Below, one piece after another: positions 3,438 through 43,319 of a stretch of 43,319 nucleotides of DNA. The stretch lies in the sequence record PX907400.1. One strand, 5' to 3'. A model generated the notes under the pieces. It did not search any database. It was not told where the DNA came from and worked only from the letters and a program-made list of their open reading frames with translations. The translations under genes and the position numbers were made by a program. Positions within the stretch are counted from its first letter, which is position 1, and each line of letters opens with the position of its first letter. The DNA comes from a phage.

Positions 3438-3440
3438 GAA

Positions 3441-3467
3441 AAAGGCCCCTCTCGGGGCCTTAGTTTT
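3441..3467. terminator. bidirectional rho-independent terminator between convergent genes
   Basis: AGGCCCC-TCTC-GGGGCCT stem-loop flanked by T-runs on both strands. Confidence 0.6.
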
Positions 3468-5799: not shown

Positions 5800-6413
5800 T
5801 ACGCGGCCTCCAGTCTCGAGATAACCAGTAATGTCGAAGGTGCTGTACCCCATGCGGTCACTGTTGCGGCCTGCGGATATACGCCGCCGAAGTTTGTCCC
5901 AGCGCTGTCTCGCATAATCTGAACGTCAAATGTTTGTCCGGAGGTTGGGTTAATAACTACACGGGATTCAATAGGGATGGTAGTTTCCGCGCTAACCAGT
6001 TTCGTAGCTGCCGGCGAGCCGTACTGAGCGCCGTTTACCAGAATGCGTGACGACAAGATAGACGTGCCGCTGGCTCCGGTTCTCCCAGCCTGTAGCTTAA
6101 TGCGAACGGCATAGTTGCCCGCGGTATTGAAAGTTACCAGACCCGCGGCATTAATCATGACAGGGTCAGAGGCACTACCCTGCGCTGCACCGAAGGTTAG
6201 TTGCAACGCGGTATCGACCGCGGACGGAGCCTGAACGACAGTAGATGCCGCACGTAGCACCTCAACCTCTTTCGCGCCAGGGTTGGCATAAATAGGCGAG
6301 TCAGCCATTTTAGTGAGAACACCGCGTAACTTCTCAGGGGTGATTAGCCCGGTTGTGTTATCCGGCAATTCAGACCCGATTAGCGTAAATATCTCTGTTT
6401 TAGTCTTCGCCAT
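5799..6413 (-). CDS. hypothetical virion protein
   Basis: 204 aa ORF in the late operon. Confidence 0.4.
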   Translation of the reverse strand: MAKTKTEIFTLIGSELPDNTTGLITPEKLRGVLTKMADSPIYANPGAKEVEVLRAASTVVQAPSAVDTALQLTFGAAQGSASDPVMINAAGLVTFNTAGNYAVRIKLQAGRTGASGTSILSSRILVNGAQYGSPAATKLVSAETTIPIESRVVINPTSGQTFDVQIMRDSAGTNFGGVYPQAATVTAWGTAPSTLLVISRLEAA

Positions 6414-6931: not shown

Positions 6932-7111
6932 TTATTCCTCAGACTTACGGCGACGACGCTTAGTGCCACCGCCGTTGTTGTGCGCTTCTTCGTTGTCCGG
7001 TTGGGTCGCAACCAGTTCATCCGCTTCTACAACACCGCGCACGGGTATCACCTGACCATCAACCATATCAACGTGGGTGTACTTTTCGCGGATTACATAA
7101 TTATCTGCCAT
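6932..7111 (-). CDS. small basic protein (59 aa)
   Basis: ATG 7111 with AAGGAAAGG Shine-Dalgarno; C-terminal GGGTKRRRRK; below the track length cutoff. Confidence 0.35.
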   Translation of the reverse strand: MADNYVIREKYTHVDMVDGQVIPVRGVVEADELVATQPDNEEAHNNGGGTKRRRRKSEE

Positions 7112-9975: not shown

Positions 9976-10207
9976 GTGTGATCACCTCTGATTTCGTCTT
10001 GCCTTCGTTGTCAGCGGCTGCGGCCTTTGATTCATCCTGCTGCTGCCGTTGTGTTTTCTTCGCTAACTCAGCCTGTGCTTTCTGCTGTTGCTGCGAAACG
10101 AGATTCGCCCGGCCTTCGTTCCAGCCGCTGTGATACTGGTAGATGCCGTGTGCGTAAGCCAGGATGATAAAACATGCCCCCGCTACGACAGTTGCTTTAA
10201 GATTCAT
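9821..10207 (-). CDS. i-spanin (Rz-like)
   Basis: N-terminal transmembrane segment then Q/A/E/K-rich coiled coil; an Rz1-like ORF overlaps its 3' half. Confidence 0.65.
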   Translation of the reverse strand: MNLKATVVAGACFIILAYAHGIYQYHSGWNEGRANLVSQQQQKAQAELAKKTQRQQQDESKAAAADNEGKTKSEVITREVVKYIKTPGRSVCAFDPERVQLKSRAVANANSIPGYDDDAAAVQTGAAK

Positions 10208-10227
10208 GTTTCCCCTTTCTCGATAAG

Positions 10228-10424
10228 TAAAGCCCCGCCTTAAAGCGGGGCGCTAGTCCTTATCATTTAAACATAGAAACGGCGTAATCTCAGTAAACCA
10301 GTTACTTTTTACACAAGCAATAGAGTAAGGCCCTTCCGAACGCGTCAGCGCAACTACACTCGGACTTAACGTCCGGCTCCGTTACCTGCCGCGCCGCGGT
10401 CGCTTGTTCATACTTCACAAGCTC
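10228..10424 (-). ncRNA. putative sRNA or structured leader (copy A of a duplicated element)
   Basis: Conserved promoter then ~110-nt block shared with 21655..21752; GCTTGT...ACAAGC hairpin and a covarying hairpin; ends at GCCCCGC...GCGGGGC stem. Confidence 0.3.
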
Positions 10425-10430
10425 AGGTGG

Positions 10431-10459
10431 AGCTTAGCACATTTTTGGTGAAAAGTCAA
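10431..10459 (-). promoter_or_regulatory. sigma70-like promoter (-35 TTGACT, 17 nt, extended -10 TGcTAAGCT)
   Basis: Identical -35 and -10 hexamers and spacing at 21759..21787; palindrome AACTATTCGAATAGTT overlaps the -35. Confidence 0.45.
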
Positions 10460-10521
10460 CTATTCGAATAGTTTATTCCAACATTTACAATTGAGTGGAA
10501 TAACTGGAATAATCACAGGCA

Positions 10522-10544
10522 CTAAAAAGCCCCTTTCGGGGCTT
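10522..10544 (-). terminator. rho-independent terminator after the Ig-like gene
   Basis: AAGCCCC-GAAA-GGGGCTT stem followed by TTTTT on the minus strand. Confidence 0.55.
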
Positions 10545-10548
10545 CGGT

Positions 10549-11010
10549 TTATTCTGGCTTAGTAACCTTCGCCGCTTTACTGACGGCCTCTACCCCATCG
10601 GCATCGGTGACTTTAACGAAGTATTCACCGACAGCATTAACCGTCAGAGACAAAGCCTCTTCTGGGGCGTTTACCACTTCCTTGCCGTCTTTGTACCAGG
10701 TCAGTACACACGGCGCTTTACCTGCCTTAACTTCGACGGTGATGGTGGCGCTACCGTCGACCAGCTCGGTGTCTTTCGGTTGCACCGAGAAATACACGTC
10801 ACCTGCATCCGCCAGATACGGAATTTCATAAAGCATGCCCGCCGCGGGTAACGCAATACCGGTTTTATCTGCAAACGGCATATCGTCTTCGGGTGTACCG
10901 AGTACACTTTCATCATCAATAAACACCACGTTCTCTCCAGAGCCAGACACGCGGGCGTACTGGACTACGCGACGTGACGGTACATCAGTTACTTTGAAAA
11001 AGCCCATCAT
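10549..11010 (-). CDS. Ig-like domain protein
   Basis: CVLTWYKDGKEV...GEYFVKV resembles an I-set Ig-like domain. Confidence 0.5.
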   Translation of the reverse strand: MMGFFKVTDVPSRRVVQYARVSGSGENVVFIDDESVLGTPEDDMPFADKTGIALPAAGMLYEIPYLADAGDVYFSVQPKDTELVDGSATITVEVKAGKAPCVLTWYKDGKEVVNAPEEALSLTVNAVGEYFVKVTDADGVEAVSKAAKVTKPE

Positions 11011-17460: not shown

Positions 17461-17489
17461 AATATAATAGGGTCTAAGGTAATAGTCAA
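17461..17489 (-). promoter_or_regulatory. sigma70-like promoter (-35 TTGACT, 17 nt, -10 TATATT)
   Basis: Hexamers at correct spacing; contains ATATAATAGGG also seen at 992..1004. Confidence 0.35.
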
Positions 17490-17511
17490 CTAGTCATTAC
17501 AGAAAACAGAT

Positions 17512-20102: not shown

Positions 20103-20133
20103 ATTCTGTCTCCCCTCTCGTTCGTGTAAATGA

Positions 20134-20162
20134 ATAGTAGCCTATTATATCTTAGTGTGCAA
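20134..20162 (-). promoter_or_regulatory. promoter (-35 TTGCAC, 17 nt, -10 TACTAT) with AATAG-N4-CTATT operator
   Basis: Same architecture as 982..1010 and 21460..21489. Confidence 0.4.
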
Positions 20163-21234: not shown

Positions 21235-21425
21235 GTGTTATCCCCTTTGAATTTAAAATTGTTGCCGATGAGTGTTAAATTATCGCGTAAGGCGAAACCA
21301 GGTTTCTTTCTTACCAGACCCCATACGTCGACCAGATTATCCTCGTCATACTCGTTCTCGTCCTGCAACACTAATACATATTGTTCTCCGCGTTTAGTTT
21401 TCACCAACTGACCTTTCTTAAACAT
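21231..21425 (-). CDS. hypothetical protein
   Basis: ATG 21425 with GAGGAG Shine-Dalgarno (track gives GTG at 21434); first gene after the promoter at 21460..21489. Confidence 0.45.
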   Translation of the reverse strand: MFKKGQLVKTKRGEQYVLVLQDENEYDEDNLVDVWGLVRKKPGFALRDNLTLIGNNFKFKGDNT

Positions 21426-21459
21426 AACCCTCACTCCTCTGTCTCGTTTCGATAAGTGA

Positions 21460-21489
21460 ATAGTATCCTATTATGTTGGGGGTGTGCAA
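21460..21489 (-). promoter_or_regulatory. promoter (-35 TTGCAC, 18 nt, -10 TACTAT) with AATAG-N4-CTATT operator
   Basis: Same architecture as 982..1010 and 20134..20162. Confidence 0.4.
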
Positions 21490-21544
21490 GAGATTAGTTA
21501 CGTTGCCGTTGTGATTCTTTCGTTTAATGGGGTAGCGAGCGAAA

Positions 21545-21752
21545 CGAAACGAACGTGGTGCCGAAGGCACCAAGAGTGAGTGAGTGAGCTTGCGGTTCTA
21601 ACCTACGGCAAATCAGTAACTTAGATATTTAGGCGGGAATTACAATAGACTTTGGCCCTTCCGAATGCGCCAGCGAGCCTCACTCCACACGTCAAGACGT
21701 GCTCGTTTCGCCTGCCGCGCACCGCGGTCGCTTGTTCATACTTCACAAGCTC
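21545..21752 (-). ncRNA. putative sRNA or structured leader (copy B of the duplicated element)
   Basis: Conserved promoter then ~110-nt block shared with 10329..10424; ends near the GGTGCC-GAAG-GGCACC hairpin. Confidence 0.3.
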
Positions 21753-21758
21753 AGGACG

Positions 21759-21787
21759 AGCTTACCATATTTCTTAGTAAAAGTCAA
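21759..21787 (-). promoter_or_regulatory. sigma70-like promoter (-35 TTGACT, 17 nt, -10 TAAGCT)
   Basis: Identical hexamers and spacing to 10431..10459. Confidence 0.45.
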
Positions 21788-21834
21788 TACAAGTAGCATC
21801 TTTTGCGCCTTAGTAACTTTGTGTGGTGTTTTGG

Positions 21835-22343: not shown

Positions 22344-22472
22344 ATGACGAAGTTAATAGTTCCACAGCTACGCCGCCAGAAACACGGCGCTGATTTCTTC
22401 GCACCGGTAAAGATGAACCGCGCAATGCGCCGTATGCAGGAAGCCTTAGAACGTGCGGAGAAAAAGAAATGA
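22344..22472 (+). CDS. hypothetical small protein (42 aa)
   Basis: AAGGA Shine-Dalgarno; stop overlaps the primase-helicase ATG. Confidence 0.3.
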   Translation: MTKLIVPQLRRQKHGADFFAPVKMNRAMRRMQEALERAEKKK

Positions 22473-24983: not shown

Positions 24984-25012
24984 TTGATATGTGAATAGTA
25001 CCATATTAATTA
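24984..25012 (+). promoter_or_regulatory. promoter/operator-like element (TTGATA + GTGAATAGTACCATATTA)
   Basis: Degenerate copy of the operator in the divergent region; direction uncertain. Confidence 0.3.
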
Positions 25013-25027: not shown

Positions 25028-25056
25028 TTGACACGTGAATAGTTCGCTATTATAGT
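25028..25056 (+). promoter_or_regulatory. sigma70 promoter (-35 TTGACA, 17 nt, -10 TATAGT) with AATAG-N4-CTATT operator in the spacer
   Basis: Near-consensus hexamers; same architecture at 27724..27752 and 31430..31458. Confidence 0.55.
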
Positions 25057-27723: not shown

Positions 27724-27752
27724 TTGACACCTGAATAGTTAGCTATTATAGT
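27724..27752 (+). promoter_or_regulatory. sigma70 promoter (-35 TTGACA, 17 nt, -10 TATAGT) with operator
   Basis: Near-identical to 25028..25056. Confidence 0.55.
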
Positions 27753-28432: not shown

Positions 28433-28452
28433 TATCTGAATCAATTTAACTA

Positions 28453-28475
28453 AGGCCCTTCATTGGGCCTTTTTA
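28453..28475 (+). terminator. rho-independent terminator
   Basis: AGGCCC-TTCATT-GGGCCT followed by TTTTT. Confidence 0.6.
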
Positions 28476-28491
28476 CTAAGGGTCGAAAATA

Positions 28492-31180: not shown

Positions 31181-31461
31181 CCCCGGAAGGCAAAATACAG
31201 AAATACGCAAAAGAGCGATTCGAGGCCATTGGTGGCCTCGTTCGTAAGCTCTCCTACGAAGGACGTTCGGGTGCCCCTGACCTGCTGGTAATTCTCCCCG
31301 GCGGCATAGTCTGGTTCGTCGAGGTGAAGAAAGACGAAAACACGAAGCCAGACCCGCACCAGATACGTGAGCACGAGCGGATGCGTAAACGTGGTGCGAA
31401 TGTTTTTGTCGTTGGTTCGTTTAAACAGGTTGACGACCTAATAGCGAGCTATTATAGTTAG
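31177..31461 (+). CDS. VRR-NUC domain nuclease
   Basis: PDLLVILPGG...FVEVKK PD-(D/E)XK core. Confidence 0.6.
   Translation: MTPEGKIQKYAKERFEAIGGLVRKLSYEGRSGAPDLLVILPGGIVWFVEVKKDENTKPDPHQIREHERMRKRGANVFVVGSFKQVDDLIASYYS
31430..31458 (+). promoter_or_regulatory. sigma70 promoter (-35 TTGACG, 17 nt, -10 TATAGT) with operator, embedded in the 3' end of the VRR-NUC gene
   Basis: Same architecture as 25028 and 27724. Confidence 0.5.
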
Positions 31462-34228: not shown

Positions 34229-34257
34229 AAAAGGCCCCGTTTGGGGCCTTAGTTTTC
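34229..34257. terminator. bidirectional rho-independent terminator
   Basis: AAGGCCCC-GTTT-GGGGCCTT with T-runs on both strands; overlaps the tailspike stop. Confidence 0.6.
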
Positions 34258-37221: not shown

Positions 37222-39777
37222 TTAATTAAAACCATTGCTGAATCCGTCGGAGAAACCGCTGCCGTATGGCGCGACGCCGTCGTATTTGTAGAATCCGTCG
37301 TCATAGTTGTAGCCAGTAATCTTGACCGTGCGGTCGTCGCCAGGGTCGATTGAAGAAACAACTATCTTCTGAGCATTATGCCTTGCTTCGTTGCCGAATG
37401 AAAACTCAGTTTTTAGTGCGCTATTCCCCGTGTAGATTGCTTCTTCCGGCGCGGAGAGCATAATCACTTCGCGGTCGTGGCTTCCTTTGATAACGGAGAT
37501 ACTCTGTACAGAGCCATCGCGCTTCTTGAGGATGATGGAGTGGTCATCACCCGGAGTAAACGTAACCGGCTGTGACAGTGTCAGCGTAAGCCCATTAACG
37601 GCAGCAACATAGCCGTCCTGTGGCGCAATACGCGAGCCTTTAACTACGCTGATTACACCGCCTGGAGTAGCGAGCGCACCTTCTTCGGTAGCTTCAAACT
37701 CTACGACAACTTTACTTAACGCATTGCGCTGATAGCGACGCCACGCCAGCCAATACGCCTGCTGATAGTTACGTACGCCCTTCGATTCGTATTCCTCTGT
37801 ATTTGCCCCGAGTTCTTCCGGGATGTAAATCGTTTCCCGTACGTTAGTATCCGGGTCGATGTATGAGAACGACAGGCTATCGTAGGTTGTCGAATCGTTG
37901 AACGTGCGGGTCCATTTCTCGGTACCGGTAGTTTTGCTGCGGTGGGTGAACACCATTTCAGGCCCCGCGACAGGACGGTCGAATCGCAGCATAATATCCG
38001 CACCTTTACGGTACGCAGTACAGAAAACGGCTTCCGCTATGGTCTGGACGATGTCCTGCATGGTTGTGTCATAGTCGTCGAACGTGTAGCAGAATTGCCC
38101 TGCTAATTCACTTCCGAAATAGGACTCAATTTCTTCCTGCACAGCAAGTAACTTGTCCATGTTTGCCGTTGTCAGTTCCAGATTGCCTACTGCGGGGTCG
38201 CGCGCCAGTCGAATTAGAGATTGTACGGCTTGCGTGTTCGGTGTCATTACTGTATCGAATACCCCATTGCCGAGGTATTTGTAACACATCTCGGTTGCAA
38301 TCATGCGCAGTTCCGGGTTGTCTATGCTGGCGGCACGCGGCGTCTGTTTACGGGTGCAATGTACGGTAGTTCTGTTGCCGTAGTGTGGAGTGGTGTCCAG
38401 AGACTGCCCATACAGGTTAATGAATGTTATCTCGTCGCTTACCGTACCGTCGTAGTCTTTATCGAAATTAGTTACACGACGCATACGGGCGCGGAAACGG
38501 GATGCGGTCGGCAATTGCCCGTAGATAGACGTACCGACGTAATCCGTATTGTTGCCTGTAATTGTGGCCTGTACCGTGTAAATATCGCTCAACGGGTTAC
38601 GCTGAGAATCAATCATCTGGTACTGGAGTTCCACCGTTACACTGGTGCGGTTATAGCCTCCGTCGTATTTGTAGAGGCCGTTCTGCCCGGCAACGTTAGC
38701 AAGTACCCGGTCAACCTCTCCGCGCACCATGTAATACCAGTCCGTAAGAGATACGTCATAGGTGTTGCTTGGGCCTATAAACGTATCCGAACGCTCTGTA
38801 AGTGCGTAAGTCTCTCCGTTATTAAGGTTGCCCCAGTTACCTATATCCCCGACGTACAACCGAACCTCAAAGTCGTCGACGTATAAAACTTCAAACGAGC
38901 CGTTCAGGTTAGTGACGTCCTTAACGTCGAAATTGCTCAACACTGCGACATCACCAACACTAAGAAACTCAGAAAAAGCAGAGTCGCCTGACGGATCATA
39001 GATGTAGCCAGTGTTTGAAATACGTTTAGCTGTGCCGTCGGCGCTTGGGTTAGCTCCGATGTCGTTTGGCGCTTTCAGCACAATACCGTCAACGTCGTCG
39101 TTGGAGTATGTCACATAGAGTTTCTGGTCAATGACGTCGCCGATTTGTAGTTGCGGAGATGCGGTGTTGTTCGGTGACGTATACGGCGCATATACGGCAA
39201 CAGATGAACCTGTGATGTCGCTTATCAGGGTGTCGCCCTCTGTGACGCCATCAGCCTCAATATGCAGATGTCCGCGCCCTGCGTCATAGTACGAATACTC
39301 CAGCAAAGCACCAGTGGAGTTGAACGCCTTATACGTCTGCATCAGGTCATTAGGGATTGTCTGCACAGTCCCGCAGATGTCATAGGAGCGCTCGTAAGGG
39401 CGTGGTTTGTTTGAGCGGTCTGTGAGGCTGTTATTTGGTGATGTTGTCTGGTTGTTAGTCGCCGTGTAGTTGGCGTTGGCGGCCGTGTTCAGGCCAAACA
39501 ACTTGGCGATTGGCTTAAGGATAAAACCAAACACCTTACTAACCGCACCGAGCGCCCCGCTACCCGCACCCTCAATAATGTGGTACACAGCGTCTTCATC
39601 TTTAAGCGCGTCGAAGTCGTCGGTGACATCAGTATCATCGCCAATCTCGCCCAGGTAGACGCGCACCGGCACGCCGTCCTGGATACGGTTAACGACAAAC
39701 TCCATCGGCATCCCGACGTGTTTTGTACGGTCAAAAGCGCCATCAGCGTTTCGCGTGTAGTGCAGGATTATCGCCAA
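37222..39777 (-). CDS. tail tip / host specificity protein (gpJ-like)
   Basis: 851 aa ORF after the NlpC/P60 gene in lambda-like order; TTG start with GGAG Shine-Dalgarno. Confidence 0.5.
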   Translation of the reverse strand: MAIILHYTRNADGAFDRTKHVGMPMEFVVNRIQDGVPVRVYLGEIGDDTDVTDDFDALKDEDAVYHIIEGAGSGALGAVSKVFGFILKPIAKLFGLNTAANANYTATNNQTTSPNNSLTDRSNKPRPYERSYDICGTVQTIPNDLMQTYKAFNSTGALLEYSYYDAGRGHLHIEADGVTEGDTLISDITGSSVAVYAPYTSPNNTASPQLQIGDVIDQKLYVTYSNDDVDGIVLKAPNDIGANPSADGTAKRISNTGYIYDPSGDSAFSEFLSVGDVAVLSNFDVKDVTNLNGSFEVLYVDDFEVRLYVGDIGNWGNLNNGETYALTERSDTFIGPSNTYDVSLTDWYYMVRGEVDRVLANVAGQNGLYKYDGGYNRTSVTVELQYQMIDSQRNPLSDIYTVQATITGNNTDYVGTSIYGQLPTASRFRARMRRVTNFDKDYDGTVSDEITFINLYGQSLDTTPHYGNRTTVHCTRKQTPRAASIDNPELRMIATEMCYKYLGNGVFDTVMTPNTQAVQSLIRLARDPAVGNLELTTANMDKLLAVQEEIESYFGSELAGQFCYTFDDYDTTMQDIVQTIAEAVFCTAYRKGADIMLRFDRPVAGPEMVFTHRSKTTGTEKWTRTFNDSTTYDSLSFSYIDPDTNVRETIYIPEELGANTEEYESKGVRNYQQAYWLAWRRYQRNALSKVVVEFEATEEGALATPGGVISVVKGSRIAPQDGYVAAVNGLTLTLSQPVTFTPGDDHSIILKKRDGSVQSISVIKGSHDREVIMLSAPEEAIYTGNSALKTEFSFGNEARHNAQKIVVSSIDPGDDRTVKITGYNYDDGFYKYDGVAPYGSGFSDGFSNGFN

Positions 39778-41142: not shown

Positions 41143-43319
41143 TATTTAAACCCCGGCGCATTTCTTGTGGCTTTGCGGGCCTTGCTAATCTTGCTGTTGC
41201 TGTTCTGCAAAGAGGCAGCCACCTGCTCCTCGATGATGATTCGCAAACGGCCTTCATCATCTTGCTCAGTGGATACGTTGCCGATTTGAGAACTCGTGTT
41301 GTTTACGATAGTAACATTAGACGGGCCGGAAGAAGACCCGTTTTGCCCCATAATTTCTTTCATCTGCTGTGCTGTGCGAACACGAGATGCGCCAGCCGGC
41401 ATAATAACTTCTGGTTTACCGCGTTCTGCGATGGTGGAAGCCTGCCCTGCGGATAACTGTCCGCCCTGTTCACGCGCGGACCGGATAGCGGAAACCTGCG
41501 CCATACCTGCACCAACGGCAGCGGCAGCGGCTACAGGGGCCAGGAACGGGCCAACTACAGGGATAGCTGCCGTTGACTTGTACGCCTCAATAGCTGCGGT
41601 GTACGTGGCGATAGTGGCCTGTACGATAGCGAATGCCTTGTACGCGCCAGAAGCCTCACCCAACGCAGACCCGATGTTTGAGGCCATGTTACCAAAGGCC
41701 GTTGCCGTTGCATCGGCACGTTTGGTTGCGTATTGCTCGTTGATGGCGTTAAGAGCGGCCTGATACTGCTTCTCGCTAATCAAACCCTGCTCGCGGTACT
41801 TATCCGCTACCGCCAGTTTCTGCTGTTCCTGGATGTCGAGAAGCTCAAGCTCAGTAGCGTTCTGACCCATAATCTGAGCCATGAAGTCGTCGCCTTTCTG
41901 CTGCTTTTCCTGGGCTTCTTTCTGGCGTTTATCCAGTTCATCTTGTCGTTTTTGCCCGGCTTCGAGGACGATAGCTGTTTTAGCCTGTTCGTATTCTTTC
42001 AGCGACAGCGCGCCCTGGCTGTAGAACTCTTTTGCCTTAGCCAGTTTCTGCTGTTCCTGCGCGTCGATAGCCTTTAACTCATCGTTGTTCTGGCGAGCCA
42101 AAGTGTCGAGGTAATCCTGCGCCTGATTCCGCAATTGTTCTGCTTTCTTGGCGGCGGCTTTTGCTGCTTTATCGTCGGTGTTTCCTGCCCCGCCAGTTCC
42201 GCCCTTTTTATTAACAAGACTGGCTAAGTCAATTTCTTGCTTCTTGCGCTCGTCGTACTGCTTGCGCTGTTCCTCAATTTCTTTCTTACGCTGCTTAGAC
42301 CTGTTGGTAATGGCCTGTGATTCTGCCTCTGCGCGTTTTATGCTAGCGGCGTACGCGGCGTCGGCCTCTGCGGTCAGGTTTTTAAATGTTAGCGCCGCCG
42401 TTTTGCTCGGGTCAAACACGTCGGCAAGGGTCTGCCCTAACGCTACAGCGTAATCGTCGATGCGCTGGAACCACGCAATAACCTCGTGAAATGTCTGCTG
42501 GATGTCCGGCAACCACTCACGGATGGCATCCGGTATAGTCCCCAGCGAGTCAGACATATCAACGGATTTGTCCTCGGTATCGAATGCCAGGTCATTCAGG
42601 GCGTCAGAAATAAACTTGAACGATTCATTGAACAGTGTCACCCAATCCTGGAGCGTGGCGGCTATCTCATTAGACGCGATGGCGTCGGTAAGCGCCGTGA
42701 TAGCGTCTTCCGCTGTGGCCGCTTGCTCACCTACGGCGTCGCCAAAACCAGACTGCGCCACCGCAAGAACAAGACCGTCGAAGGAGTCGGCGAGGCTCGA
42801 TAACTGGCCGTCTAGCGTCTTAGAGCGCGTCTCCATCGCCCCGGCAAAATCGGTGTTGCCGATATTCAGGAGGTATTTCTGAATCTCTTCGGAGTTCTTC
42901 TTAACCGTGGTCGTTACGCCGCGGAACGTGAACGAAACTGTATCTGCCTGTTGCGACGACTTGATGCCGAACTCTTTTAAGCGCTCAAATTCAAATGTAC
43001 TGGCGTCGGCAACTGCCTCAATCATCTGATTAAGGTCTTTACCCATAGCCGCCGCGGTGTTGCCGTAGGAGATTAACGCCTCTTTGCTGGGGTTCAGACC
43101 GAGCGCAACGAGCTTGGTAAACCCCTCTACCGCCTGATTGAGACCGTACGGGGTCTCTTTTGCAAACTGTTGCAGGACGCTGAAAGCCTTAGCCGCGTTC
43201 TCGGCGCTCCCGGTCATCGTGATGAGGCCGGAGTTCAGCTTATCGAAGTTTCGCTGGGAATCCACCAGCGCGCTGAACACCTGCTTAGCGGTTTCCAGAC
43301 TGACAACGGCGGCGGCGGC
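41142..43319 (-). CDS. tail tape measure protein, C-terminal ~725 codons (5' end lies at 1..99)
   Basis: Long Ala/Gln/Lys-rich helical protein upstream of the minor tail genes; frame stays open past the track start 43280 to the window end. Confidence 0.7.
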   Translation of the reverse strand, partial: AAAAVVSLETAKQVFSALVDSQRNFDKLNSGLITMTGSAENAAKAFSVLQQFAKETPYGLNQAVEGFTKLVALGLNPSKEALISYGNTAAAMGKDLNQMIEAVADASTFEFERLKEFGIKSSQQADTVSFTFRGVTTTVKKNSEEIQKYLLNIGNTDFAGAMETRSKTLDGQLSSLADSFDGLVLAVAQSGFGDAVGEQAATAEDAITALTDAIASNEIAATLQDWVTLFNESFKFISDALNDLAFDTEDKSVDMSDSLGTIPDAIREWLPDIQQTFHEVIAWFQRIDDYAVALGQTLADVFDPSKTAALTFKNLTAEADAAYAASIKRAEAESQAITNRSKQRKKEIEEQRKQYDERKKQEIDLASLVNKKGGTGGAGNTDDKAAKAAAKKAEQLRNQAQDYLDTLARQNNDELKAIDAQEQQKLAKAKEFYSQGALSLKEYEQAKTAIVLEAGQKRQDELDKRQKEAQEKQQKGDDFMAQIMGQNATELELLDIQEQQKLAVADKYREQGLISEKQYQAALNAINEQYATKRADATATAFGNMASNIGSALGEASGAYKAFAIVQATIATYTAAIEAYKSTAAIPVVGPFLAPVAAAAAVGAGMAQVSAIRSAREQGGQLSAGQASTIAERGKPEVIMPAGASRVRTAQQMKEIMGQNGSSSGPSNVTIVNNTSSQIGNVSTEQDDEGRLRIIIEEQVAASLQNSNSKISKARKATRNAPGFK

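Follow-up and report, generated by a model that had tools for sequence, protein, structure and literature searches.

What does a phage gain from placing one short promoter, and one stretch of transcript behind it, ahead of two different blocks of genes? The question is raised by the phage sequence PX907400.1, a stretch of 43,319 nucleotides (nt) that was analysed as a whole and is called the window here. Its divergent control region, from which genes run leftward beginning at ~21.4 kb and replication genes rightward from 21.9 kb, contains an element that an earlier sequence-only reading had described, over 21545-21790, as the second copy of a conserved leader resembling a small RNA (sRNA). A BLAST search with this region, together with the gene annotation of the closest record (Escherichia phage EcoPhCCP1, PQ384582), identifies the window as a more or less complete Kagunavirus-like siphophage genome from the Guernseyvirinae; in the major capsid protein it matches phage K1G at 100% identity. 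We describe the element as a promoter fused to a structured RNA, and consider what this RNA may do.

A promoter-plus-core module in two copies

The element is a sigma-70 promoter, TTGACT-N17-TGnTAAGCT, joined to an RNA core of ~108 nt, and the window holds two copies of this module, both on the minus strand (Table 1). Copy B, with promoter P_B, lies in the divergent control region, and copy A, with promoter P_A and a predicted transcript start at ~10424, lies in the late genes. The pattern TTGACT-N16-18-TAAGCT has two sites in the window against 0.01 expected, and none of 100 shuffles produced two. A repeat search joined the copies over 70 nt at 86% identity and a further 33 nt at 85%. A covariance model run over the window with its filters off scored them at 120 and 76 bits; the next best site reached 9 bits, and no third copy was found. 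The earlier reading was therefore right that copy B is the second copy of a conserved element with the same minus-strand promoter, and right that the two copies precede different gene sets, each heading a block of its own. Its interval was only partly borne out: the copies and dozens of aligned relatives delimit a conserved unit that starts at the -35 and stops at ...UCUAUUG, ~+108 (21643-21787 in copy B), and most of 21545-21642 is specific to the lineage of copy B.

Across relatives the -35, the TG and the -10 are retained and the promoter spacer varies. An independent annotation of phage fBC-Eco01 marks the site homologous to P_B as a predicted host promoter. A C-type core with an A-like promoter spacer stands at the late site in contig L009 and at the control-region site in contig L022. 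Because the same module occurs at different sites, promoter and core travel as one unit by recombination, and their moving together favours a promoter-coupled role in cis.

The first transcribed bases echo the -10 of the promoter (21753-21764; 10425-10436; L158 2009-2035). In the K1G type TAAGCT is followed by (T)GAGCTT and in the Jersey type TACGCT by TACGCT, so that the third base co-varies between types. The xAxxxT hexamer near +1 doubles as the 5' strand of the first stem of the core; the repeat could be a sigma-dependent pause element or a mere by-product of that stem.

The core is a folded minus-strand RNA

Read on the minus strand, the core has a hairpin at its 5' end, P1, and then a long, irregular one, P2, a fold supported by compensatory changes over six sequence types. 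Folded singly, sequences of every type give this arrangement, with P1 running from +3, 2 nt from the predicted 5' end, and P2 following it. P1 varies by U.G wobbles, and the Jersey type pairs a different sequence at the same place. In copy B, P2 consists of a basal helix (CCG-C-GGUGCGC / GCGCAUU-CGG; consensus over types ACCG-C-GGYGCG / CGCRUU-CGG), an internal-loop region and an apical hairpin.

RNAalifold recovers the basal helix from an ordinary MAFFT alignment; within the helix, one position pairs as C-G (18 sequences), U-A (13) or A-U (2). A covariance model was built from the K1G-like types (alignment A3) and then used to align 64 matches, corresponding to 40 distinct sequences. In this model-fitted alignment 95.1% of cells are paired vs 84.4% in column shuffles, none of 500 shuffles reaching the observed value; 18 of the 29 pairs show changes on both sides, and sliding the partners by 1-3 columns leaves just 32-37% paired. 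The unfitted alignment A3 gives 95.7% vs 91.0% shuffled (0/500), with slid controls at 32-42%. When the structure is read on the opposite strand pairing falls to 85.9%, and we assign the RNA to the minus strand because of two near-invariant G.U pairs and several U.G variants. The core thus has both compensatory pair changes among homologues and a preference for one strand, as a structured RNA should.

The apical hairpin is wholly different among types (GGGAC/GUCCU, GGUGC/GCACU, CACGU/ACGUG, UGCC/GGCA, GGGCG/CGCCC), and its loop is free to vary (GUAA, GUUAA, CUUG, UCUCAA). The other loops and the basal helix are strongly conserved in sequence beyond what pairing explains (ACCGCGG, GAGUGUAG, UUCGGAAGGG). 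Pairing of the P1 loop (AGUAUG) with the tail (CAUACU) as a pseudoknot was dropped from the model, as the tail position is C, G, U or A without compensation.

A family of the Guernseyvirinae

The module is carried by E. coli and Salmonella siphophages of the Guernseyvirinae, ahead of long gene blocks. BLAST places K1G-type elements in 181 phage records, 43 of which have extra places, i.e. two copies. The divergent Jersey-type element occurs as a single copy, at the site equivalent to copy A, in 269 mostly Salmonella phage records, and most Guernseyvirinae have copy A alone. The covariance model detects all types, A to E as well as Jersey, with scores of 37-132 bits. Unrelated viral loci totalling 669 kb, which had come from an unspecific scan with the 16-nt promoter pattern, gave it no match at E<=10. 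Pattern scans of IMG/VR and metagenomes returned only Guernseyvirinae-like contigs of ~41-45 kb, and 185,579 bacterial species genomes gave one real match, a contig of 738 nt. No similar sequence was found by BLAST in 5,426 E. coli genomes, on which ground we rejected a host or prophage origin of the element; nor was the element found in Klebsiella phage VLCpiS6a, the nearest phage outside the subfamily (capsid 44% identical).

Rfam release 15 gave no family at gathering thresholds over the whole window, sensitive Rfam scans of both copies gave hits at chance level only (E>=1), and no tRNA or tmRNA was found in the window. The literature we searched contained no description or transcriptome of this element. 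The core is, with good support, a new family of structured RNAs, and its general kind, the promoter-proximal cis-regulatory leader, is a familiar one.

In public records the element is overlain by calls of hypothetical proteins, at 6990-7091 and 38964-39235 of PQ384582.1, 7265-7456 of NC_021777.1 (Jersey gp08) and 6200-6316 of OM272052.1, and a short open reading frame (ORF) overlapping it in fBC-Eco01 is annotated as hypothetical protein fBC-Eco01_09. Insertions or deletions of 1 nt between close variants (type A GGC vs GGGC; Jersey GCGGTCG vs GCGGGTCG) disrupt every overlapping ORF. We therefore rejected a coding reading and regard these short genes as probably spurious calls.

Copy A precedes a probable terminator and the late genes

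Beyond the terminator that closes the preceding block, the leftward order is copy A, spanins, scaffold, major capsid, connector and tail genes, up to a terminator at 3442-3461. Between copy A and the spanins lies a leader hairpin followed by UUUACUU. On the terminator score d, for which good terminators of this genome give +14 to +18, it reaches +14 vs +18 for the operon-end terminator, and its stem is kept by compensatory variants among relatives. An intrinsic terminator is thus a credible reading of this hairpin, and copy A has the GC hairpin and U-tract expected at the 3' end of a terminator-ended sRNA. The hairpin stands ~75 nt beyond the core and 12 nt before the spanin ribosome-binding site, with no other promoter between hairpin and binding site. 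Because this terminator-like hairpin intervenes, expression from P_A of the most abundant late proteins needs read-through. Additional terminator-like hairpins follow the capsid and portal genes (d from -5 to +4). An antiterminator helix competing with the 5' arm of the terminator was considered and rejected, since core and downstream leader share no complement of >=7 nt.

Upstream of the P_A -35 lies a palindrome whose centre is ~13 bp from that hexamer; the Jersey-type form is GAATA-CTT-TATTC. It is a possible activator or repressor site of the late copy only.

The leader of copy B and a possible switch

Copy B lies ~300 nt upstream of a promoter of another class, P_E. The earlier reading had named three features between or near them, a GGTGCC-GAAG-GGCACC hairpin, a (GAGT)n run and the promoter itself, and all three are there: the hairpin, hp2, in the longer form TGGTGCC-GAAG-GGCACCA, the run as (GAGT)3.75 and P_E as a minus-strand TTGCAC-N18-TACTAT. 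As a terminator hp2 was rejected: the tail behind it, CGUUCGUUUC, gives d = -40, and copy B thus lacks the 3' end of a terminator-ended (Hfq-type) sRNA. The C-type and D-type leaders carry a different hairpin at this position, likewise without a U-tract (d = -32). Of the suggestion that the two copies form a shared cis- or trans-acting RNA or a regulator-binding platform, the RNA reading is supported by covariation and strand preference; a self-contained sRNA ending at the copy B hairpin is unlikely because hp2 is not a canonical terminator.

The flanks of hp2 can pair with the core. A 9-nt segment X within P2 has a perfect complement, anti-X, 8 nt 3' of hp2, and the (ACUC)n run (anti-Y), the RNA form of (GAGT)n, is the complement of a segment Y that lies in the internal loop of P2. 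Y and the Shine-Dalgarno region of the first early gene are direct repeats of each other. In the D-type leaders ACGCAACGC at the X position and GCGUUGCGU at the post-hairpin position form an unrelated 9-mer pair in the same two places. Each X:anti-X match taken alone has p ~0.02-0.04; the positional coincidence of unrelated pairs in B-type and D-type leaders seems hard to ascribe to chance. The number of (GAGT)n units differs among close relatives, from ~3.75 to ~6.75 (the latter in L006, 4174-4282 plus downstream), which may be slippage-prone tuning of the anti-Y segment. The C-type and D-type leaders have a similar tetranucleotide run in reversed orientation.

The B-type leader can adopt a four-way fold of X:anti-X, apical hairpin, Y:anti-Y and hp2. 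Full B-type leaders are 16-23 kcal/mol more stable than core and downstream sequence folded separately, against 1-5 in the other types. The four-way fold disrupts P2 and frees a local CCGCG/CGCGG hairpin, which the E-type (L017) keeps through a compensatory U-A pair.

The segment from anti-Y through hp2 to anti-X is also complementary to the 5' untranslated region (5'UTR) of the first early gene, including its Shine-Dalgarno. In the close B-type relatives L001 and L006, whose 5'UTR is that of the window, this duplex is predicted at -29 to -31 kcal/mol vs -21 +/- 3.3 for shuffled UTRs (p ~0.01). The same test was not significant in C-type and D-type leaders, and neither copy A nor the Jersey type has the complementarity. 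For (ACUC)n and UCGUUUCGC of copy B there are two alternative partners: X and Y within the core of the same leader, or the 5'UTR and Shine-Dalgarno region that precede the first early gene. Such a choice suggests that copy B includes a lineage-specific conformational switch which, on transcripts from P_B, could silence the first early gene by masking its ribosome-binding site.

Table 1. Positions of the module copies and associated features in the window (coordinates of PX907400.1).
Feature	Position	Strand	Basis or remark
-35 of P_B, TTGACT	21782-21787	minus	sequence; pattern search
Extended -10 of P_B, TGgTAAGCT	21759-21767	minus	sequence; pattern search
Promoter P_B, overall	21759-21787	minus	
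Predicted transcription start of P_B, G	21752	minus	
Core RNA, copy B, 110 nt	21643-21752	minus	covariance model R1, 75.9 bits, E=5e-16
P1 hairpin GCUUGU / ACAAGC, 9-nt loop GAAGUAUGA, begins at +3	21730-21750	minus	folds
P2, long irregular hairpin	21661-21727	minus	folds, RNAalifold, covariation
Segment X, GCGAAACGA, within P2, core position 42	21703-21711	minus	complementary to anti-X
P2 apical hairpin CACGU-CUUG-ACGUG	21688-21701	minus	
Segment Y, GGAGUGAGG, P2 internal loop	21678-21686	minus	complementary to (ACUC)n run
Single-stranded conserved tail AAGGGCC...UCUAUUG	21643-21660	minus	alignments; A/B homology stops here
(ACUC)n run on RNA, (GAGT)3.75 on plus strand	21574-21588	minus	sequence; anti-Y, anti-Shine-Dalgarno-like
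hp2 hairpin UGGUGCC-UUCG-GGCACCA	21556-21572	minus	no U-tract, d = -40
anti-X, UCGUUUCGC, begins 8 nt 3' of hp2	21539-21547	minus	perfect 9-base complement of X
P_E, TTGCAC-N18-TACTAT, holding phage-wide ATAATAG-N3-ACTATTC	21460-21489	minus	sequence, motif search
5'UTR and start codon of first leftward early gene, AUCGAAACGAGACAGAGGAGUGAGGGUUAUG	21423-21453	minus	contains X' CGAAACGAG and Y' GGAGUGAGGG (Shine-Dalgarno region)
Copy A, whole module	10318-10459	minus	repeat search and alignment
Palindrome GAATA-AAC-TATTC upstream of P_A -35	10466-10478	minus	no counterpart in copy B; present in Jersey type
Promoter P_A, TTGACT-N17-TGcTAAGCT	10431-10459	minus	sequence; pattern search
Core RNA, copy A	10318-10424	minus	covariance model R1, 120 bits
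Leader hairpin of copy A, GCCCCGC-UUUA-AGGCGGGGC then UUUACUU	10232-10251	minus	d = +14
Spanin ribosome-binding site	10205-10219	minus	12 nt past end of copy A leader hairpin
Terminator closing block upstream of copy A	10524-10551		
Terminator-like hairpin 3' of capsid gene	7860-7839		
Bidirectional terminator hairpins, AAAAGGCCCC...GGGGCCTT	3440-3467, 10524-10551, 34229-34256 (also 28448-28478)		near-identical family
GAATAGT-N3-CTATTAT sites	996-1012, 20132-20148, 21458-21474, 24993-25009, 25037-25053, 27733-27749, 31439-31455; weakly 17479-17495	both orientations	

What the core may do

Because the same core stands in both contexts, it needs one explanation. In each it is fused to its own promoter, begins with the first bases of the transcript and is followed by long untranslated sequence and a multi-kilobase block with terminators. 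Our favoured reading, held tentatively and with clearly less than even confidence, is that the core may be a promoter-coupled leader RNA that acts in cis to make RNA polymerase resistant to terminators, analogous to the put RNA of phage HK022 and not homologous to it. We propose that host sigma-70 RNA polymerase would initiate at TTGACT-N17-TGnTAAGCT, that the first ~108 nt of the nascent transcript would fold into P1 and P2, and that this RNA, alone or with host elongation factors, would leave its own polymerase in a state that resists pause and termination signals. On this view, transcription from P_A could read through the leader terminator (10251-10232) as well as the one behind the capsid gene, and transcripts from P_B could cross their long untranslated leader and the internal terminators of a leftward block of ~11 kb comprising early genes, lysis, terminase, portal and head genes. 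We infer that P_A and P_B fire, that the RNA contacts RNA polymerase and that read-through depends on the RNA. Scans of 10 early proteins against PHROGs and Pfam found none of the Q, N or AlpA families, their only finding being an HTH_17 / Xis-like protein; the lack of a detectable Q-like or N-like early protein leaves room for a mechanism carried by RNA only.

Several observations weigh against this proposal. The hairpin of copy B and its counterpart in C-type and D-type leaders are not terminators, and the Jersey-type hairpin at the copy A site is borderline (d = -3). Most Guernseyvirinae manage with copy A only, and copy B can therefore be done without. In the E-type (L017) the long basal helix is weakened and a local CCGUG/CACGG hairpin is kept by compensation; the single fold modelled here is thus possibly one of two states. 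A 5'-terminal hairpin followed by a helix of ~20 bp would also fit an mRNA stabiliser or an RNase III site. The analogy with put is one of context, because the two lack sequence similarity and the covariance model has no match in HK022. Finally, the literature searched yielded no transcript, 5'-end or read-through data for these phages.

Other functions have to be weighed against the same evidence. We consider it unlikely that the core is a platform for protein-dependent antitermination or attenuation, in which its loops and basal helix would bind a phage protein in the manner of nut and N, or its promoter would load a factor of the Q or AlpA type, to give timed read-through. That loops and basal helix are conserved in sequence, and not merely in pairing, would suit such a protein, as would the order of promoter, ~190-nt leader, terminator and late genes at copy A, which mirrors lambda PR'-tR', and an xAxxxT hexamer at ~+1 that resembles each type's own -10 (GAGCTT in the K1G type, TACGCT in the Jersey type). 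The palindrome upstream of copy A and a small HTH_17 protein encoded by the first gene of the divergent operon also speak for it. However, copy B has no upstream palindrome, among solved structures the HTH protein comes nearest to a mycobacteriophage Xis (E=0.15), and no early protein matches the Q, N or AlpA families; no boxA or boxB was seen by eye, and the freely varying apical loops do not look like a boxB-type recognition loop. We give a similarly low probability to a 5'-UTR module for stability, processing or translation, in which P1 would shield the 5' end, P2 or the X/Y junction would be an RNase III-type site and the flanks of copy B would mask a Shine-Dalgarno. The position of P1, 2 nt from the predicted 5' end in all types, and the long P2 helix broken by internal loops are what such a module would look like, and in B-type leaders the four-way alternative fold is thermodynamically strongly favoured and the complementarity to the early 5'UTR and Shine-Dalgarno reaches p ~0.01 (L001, L006). 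But C-type and D-type leaders show that complementarity at no significant level, and copy A and the Jersey type lack it, so it cannot be what the shared core is for; ~110 nt with conserved loops is also more than a simple stabiliser needs, and the passage of polymerase through the copy A terminator is left unexplained.

A third rival is a stand-alone, trans-acting sRNA. Both copies come with a promoter of their own and, ~75-105 nt beyond the core, with a GC-rich hairpin, that of copy A scores as a terminator, and the conserved GGA-containing tail could bind a protein, so that sRNAs of ~190-215 nt from P_A and P_B, with host or phage targets or sequestering a host protein, can be imagined. We hold this to be decidedly improbable: without a U-tract at the copy B and C/D-type hairpins (d = -40, -32) transcripts should continue into P_E and the early genes, and at copy A a ribosome-binding site lies 12 nt past the hairpin with no promoter between. 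The 0 similar sequences in 5,426 E. coli genomes show that such an sRNA would not be host-derived, a result that is silent on short base-pairing targets. A role at the DNA level (replication origin, primer site or operator array) or as a small protein gene is scarcely credible. The minimum of the cumulative GC skew at ~21.5 kb adjoins copy B and the helicase-primase gene, and short overlapping ORFs are annotated as hypothetical in PQ384582, as Jersey gp08 and as fBC-Eco01_09; yet that minimum falls where the genes change direction and the skew has no inflection at copy A, single-base insertions or deletions between close variants disrupt all these ORFs, and stems that covary with G.U pairs on one strand point to a folded transcript over a protein site on duplex DNA.

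Returning to terminator resistance, a broader form of the proposal holds that the core belongs to an unrecognised class of antiterminator RNA, put-like in function and unrelated in origin, which drives the long late units of the Guernseyvirinae, virulent siphophages, from ordinary sigma-70 promoters and to which copy B adds a switch masking a ribosome-binding site. We regard this as doubtful, though its consequences would be considerable. HK022-type put elements and a few bacterial leaders are essentially the only known cases of RNA-only processive antitermination; if the broader proposal is true, this strategy evolved more than once. It would explain how ~18 kb is expressed leftward through several terminators without a polymerase of the phage's own or a recognisable Q or N, and it would offer synthetic biology a compact promoter-plus-RNA part of ~140 bp. 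Whatever its function, the core represents a new structured RNA family, mis-annotated as hypothetical proteins in many GenBank phage records, and the Guernseyvirinae that host it form a large, frequently isolated group of therapy phages against E. coli and Salmonella.

Surrounding genes and other motifs

The minus-strand genes that begin left of copy B run from small early genes through holins and endolysin, terminase, portal and head morphogenesis to a Hoc-like protein. Near-identical bidirectional terminator hairpins (AAAAGGCCCC...GGGGCCTT) form the borders between gene blocks. Late tail genes are separated from the P_A block by a 2.4-kb insert of opposite orientation. The tape-measure gene contains a 53-nt direct repeat (41812-41864 and 42040-42092, 74% identical, 228 nt apart), which probably reflects internal repeat structure of the protein.

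The quasi-palindrome GAATAGT-N3-CTATTAT has 8 sites in the window vs 0.2 expected, and sits in the spacer and -10 of sigma-70-like promoters. It was reported as a consensus in the paper on fBC-Eco01 (PMC9825357). One paper labels it a 'phage RNA polymerase promoter', yet these phages encode no RNA polymerase; the motif looks more like an operator for some regulator, marking a promoter class distinct from P_A and P_B. The region 874-1025 is a second divergent control region, where a single GAATAGT...CTATTAT motif apparently serves promoters in both directions: rightward to a superinfection-immunity and exonuclease module, leftward to the tail assembly chaperone and tape measure.

Comparison with known systems

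The closest parallel in context is HK022, whose put RNA, still nascent, remains attached to the polymerase and counteracts pausing and termination; it works in cis with no phage protein, through the zinc-binding domain of the beta' subunit, and is present twice, after PL and PR (PMC9378689). In both phages the RNA lies just downstream of sigma-70 promoters, in two related copies in different operons containing terminators. The two-hairpin architecture is shared, and a dedicated antiterminator protein is not identifiable in the window phage. However, put is ~70 nt long against ~108 nt for the core, and HK022 is a lambdoid temperate phage whereas the window phage is a virulent siphovirus. Local alignment of the core with putL and putR scores 12-17 (shuffle mean ~14), against 35 vs 13 for putL with putR, and covariance model R1 has no match in HK022 at E<=1; these scores rule out membership of the put family.

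Two systems of phage lambda are alike in other respects. In the late leader of lambda, PR'-tR' (6S RNA), a promoter, a leader and an intrinsic terminator precede the late genes, and the Q antiterminator acts there. Copy A likewise has a promoter, a leader of ~190 nt and an intrinsic terminator ahead of late lysis and structural genes, and a -10-like hexamer stands in the initially transcribed region of the copies. The differences are that no Q homologue was found among the early proteins of the window, that copy B has no terminator and that the RNA fold of the core is conserved, which Q systems do not require. In lambda, nut joins a boxA sequence to a boxB hairpin with a conserved GNRA-like loop, and N is an arginine-rich protein. 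With N and nut the core shares two cis-acting RNA sites downstream of the promoters of different operons, but its apical loops are variable and no N-like protein was detected in the early-protein scans. No boxA or boxB was recognised in the core on inspection by eye; boxA, ops and k-turn motifs were set aside, as the resemblance seen by eye was only partial and not conserved. A 42-amino-acid protein rich in Arg and Lys (MTKLIVPQLRRQKHG...NRAMRRMQEALERAEKKK; phrog_23061) is encoded at 22344-22472 on the plus strand, immediately ahead of the helicase-primase gene; in composition it is reminiscent of RNA-binding peptides rich in arginine, which makes it a candidate partner for the core RNA.

The leader of copy B has parallels of its own. 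The c4 RNA of P1 and P7 and the CI RNA of P4 are leader-derived antisense regulators. They have no sequence relation to copy B, whose boxes are short (7-9 nt) and significant in B-type leaders only. What copy B shares with them is its layout: an upstream (ACUC)n-hairpin-UCGUUUCGC segment is complementary to two downstream boxes at a ribosome-binding site, the target gene would lie in the same transcription unit, and the decoy boxes X and Y stand further upstream.

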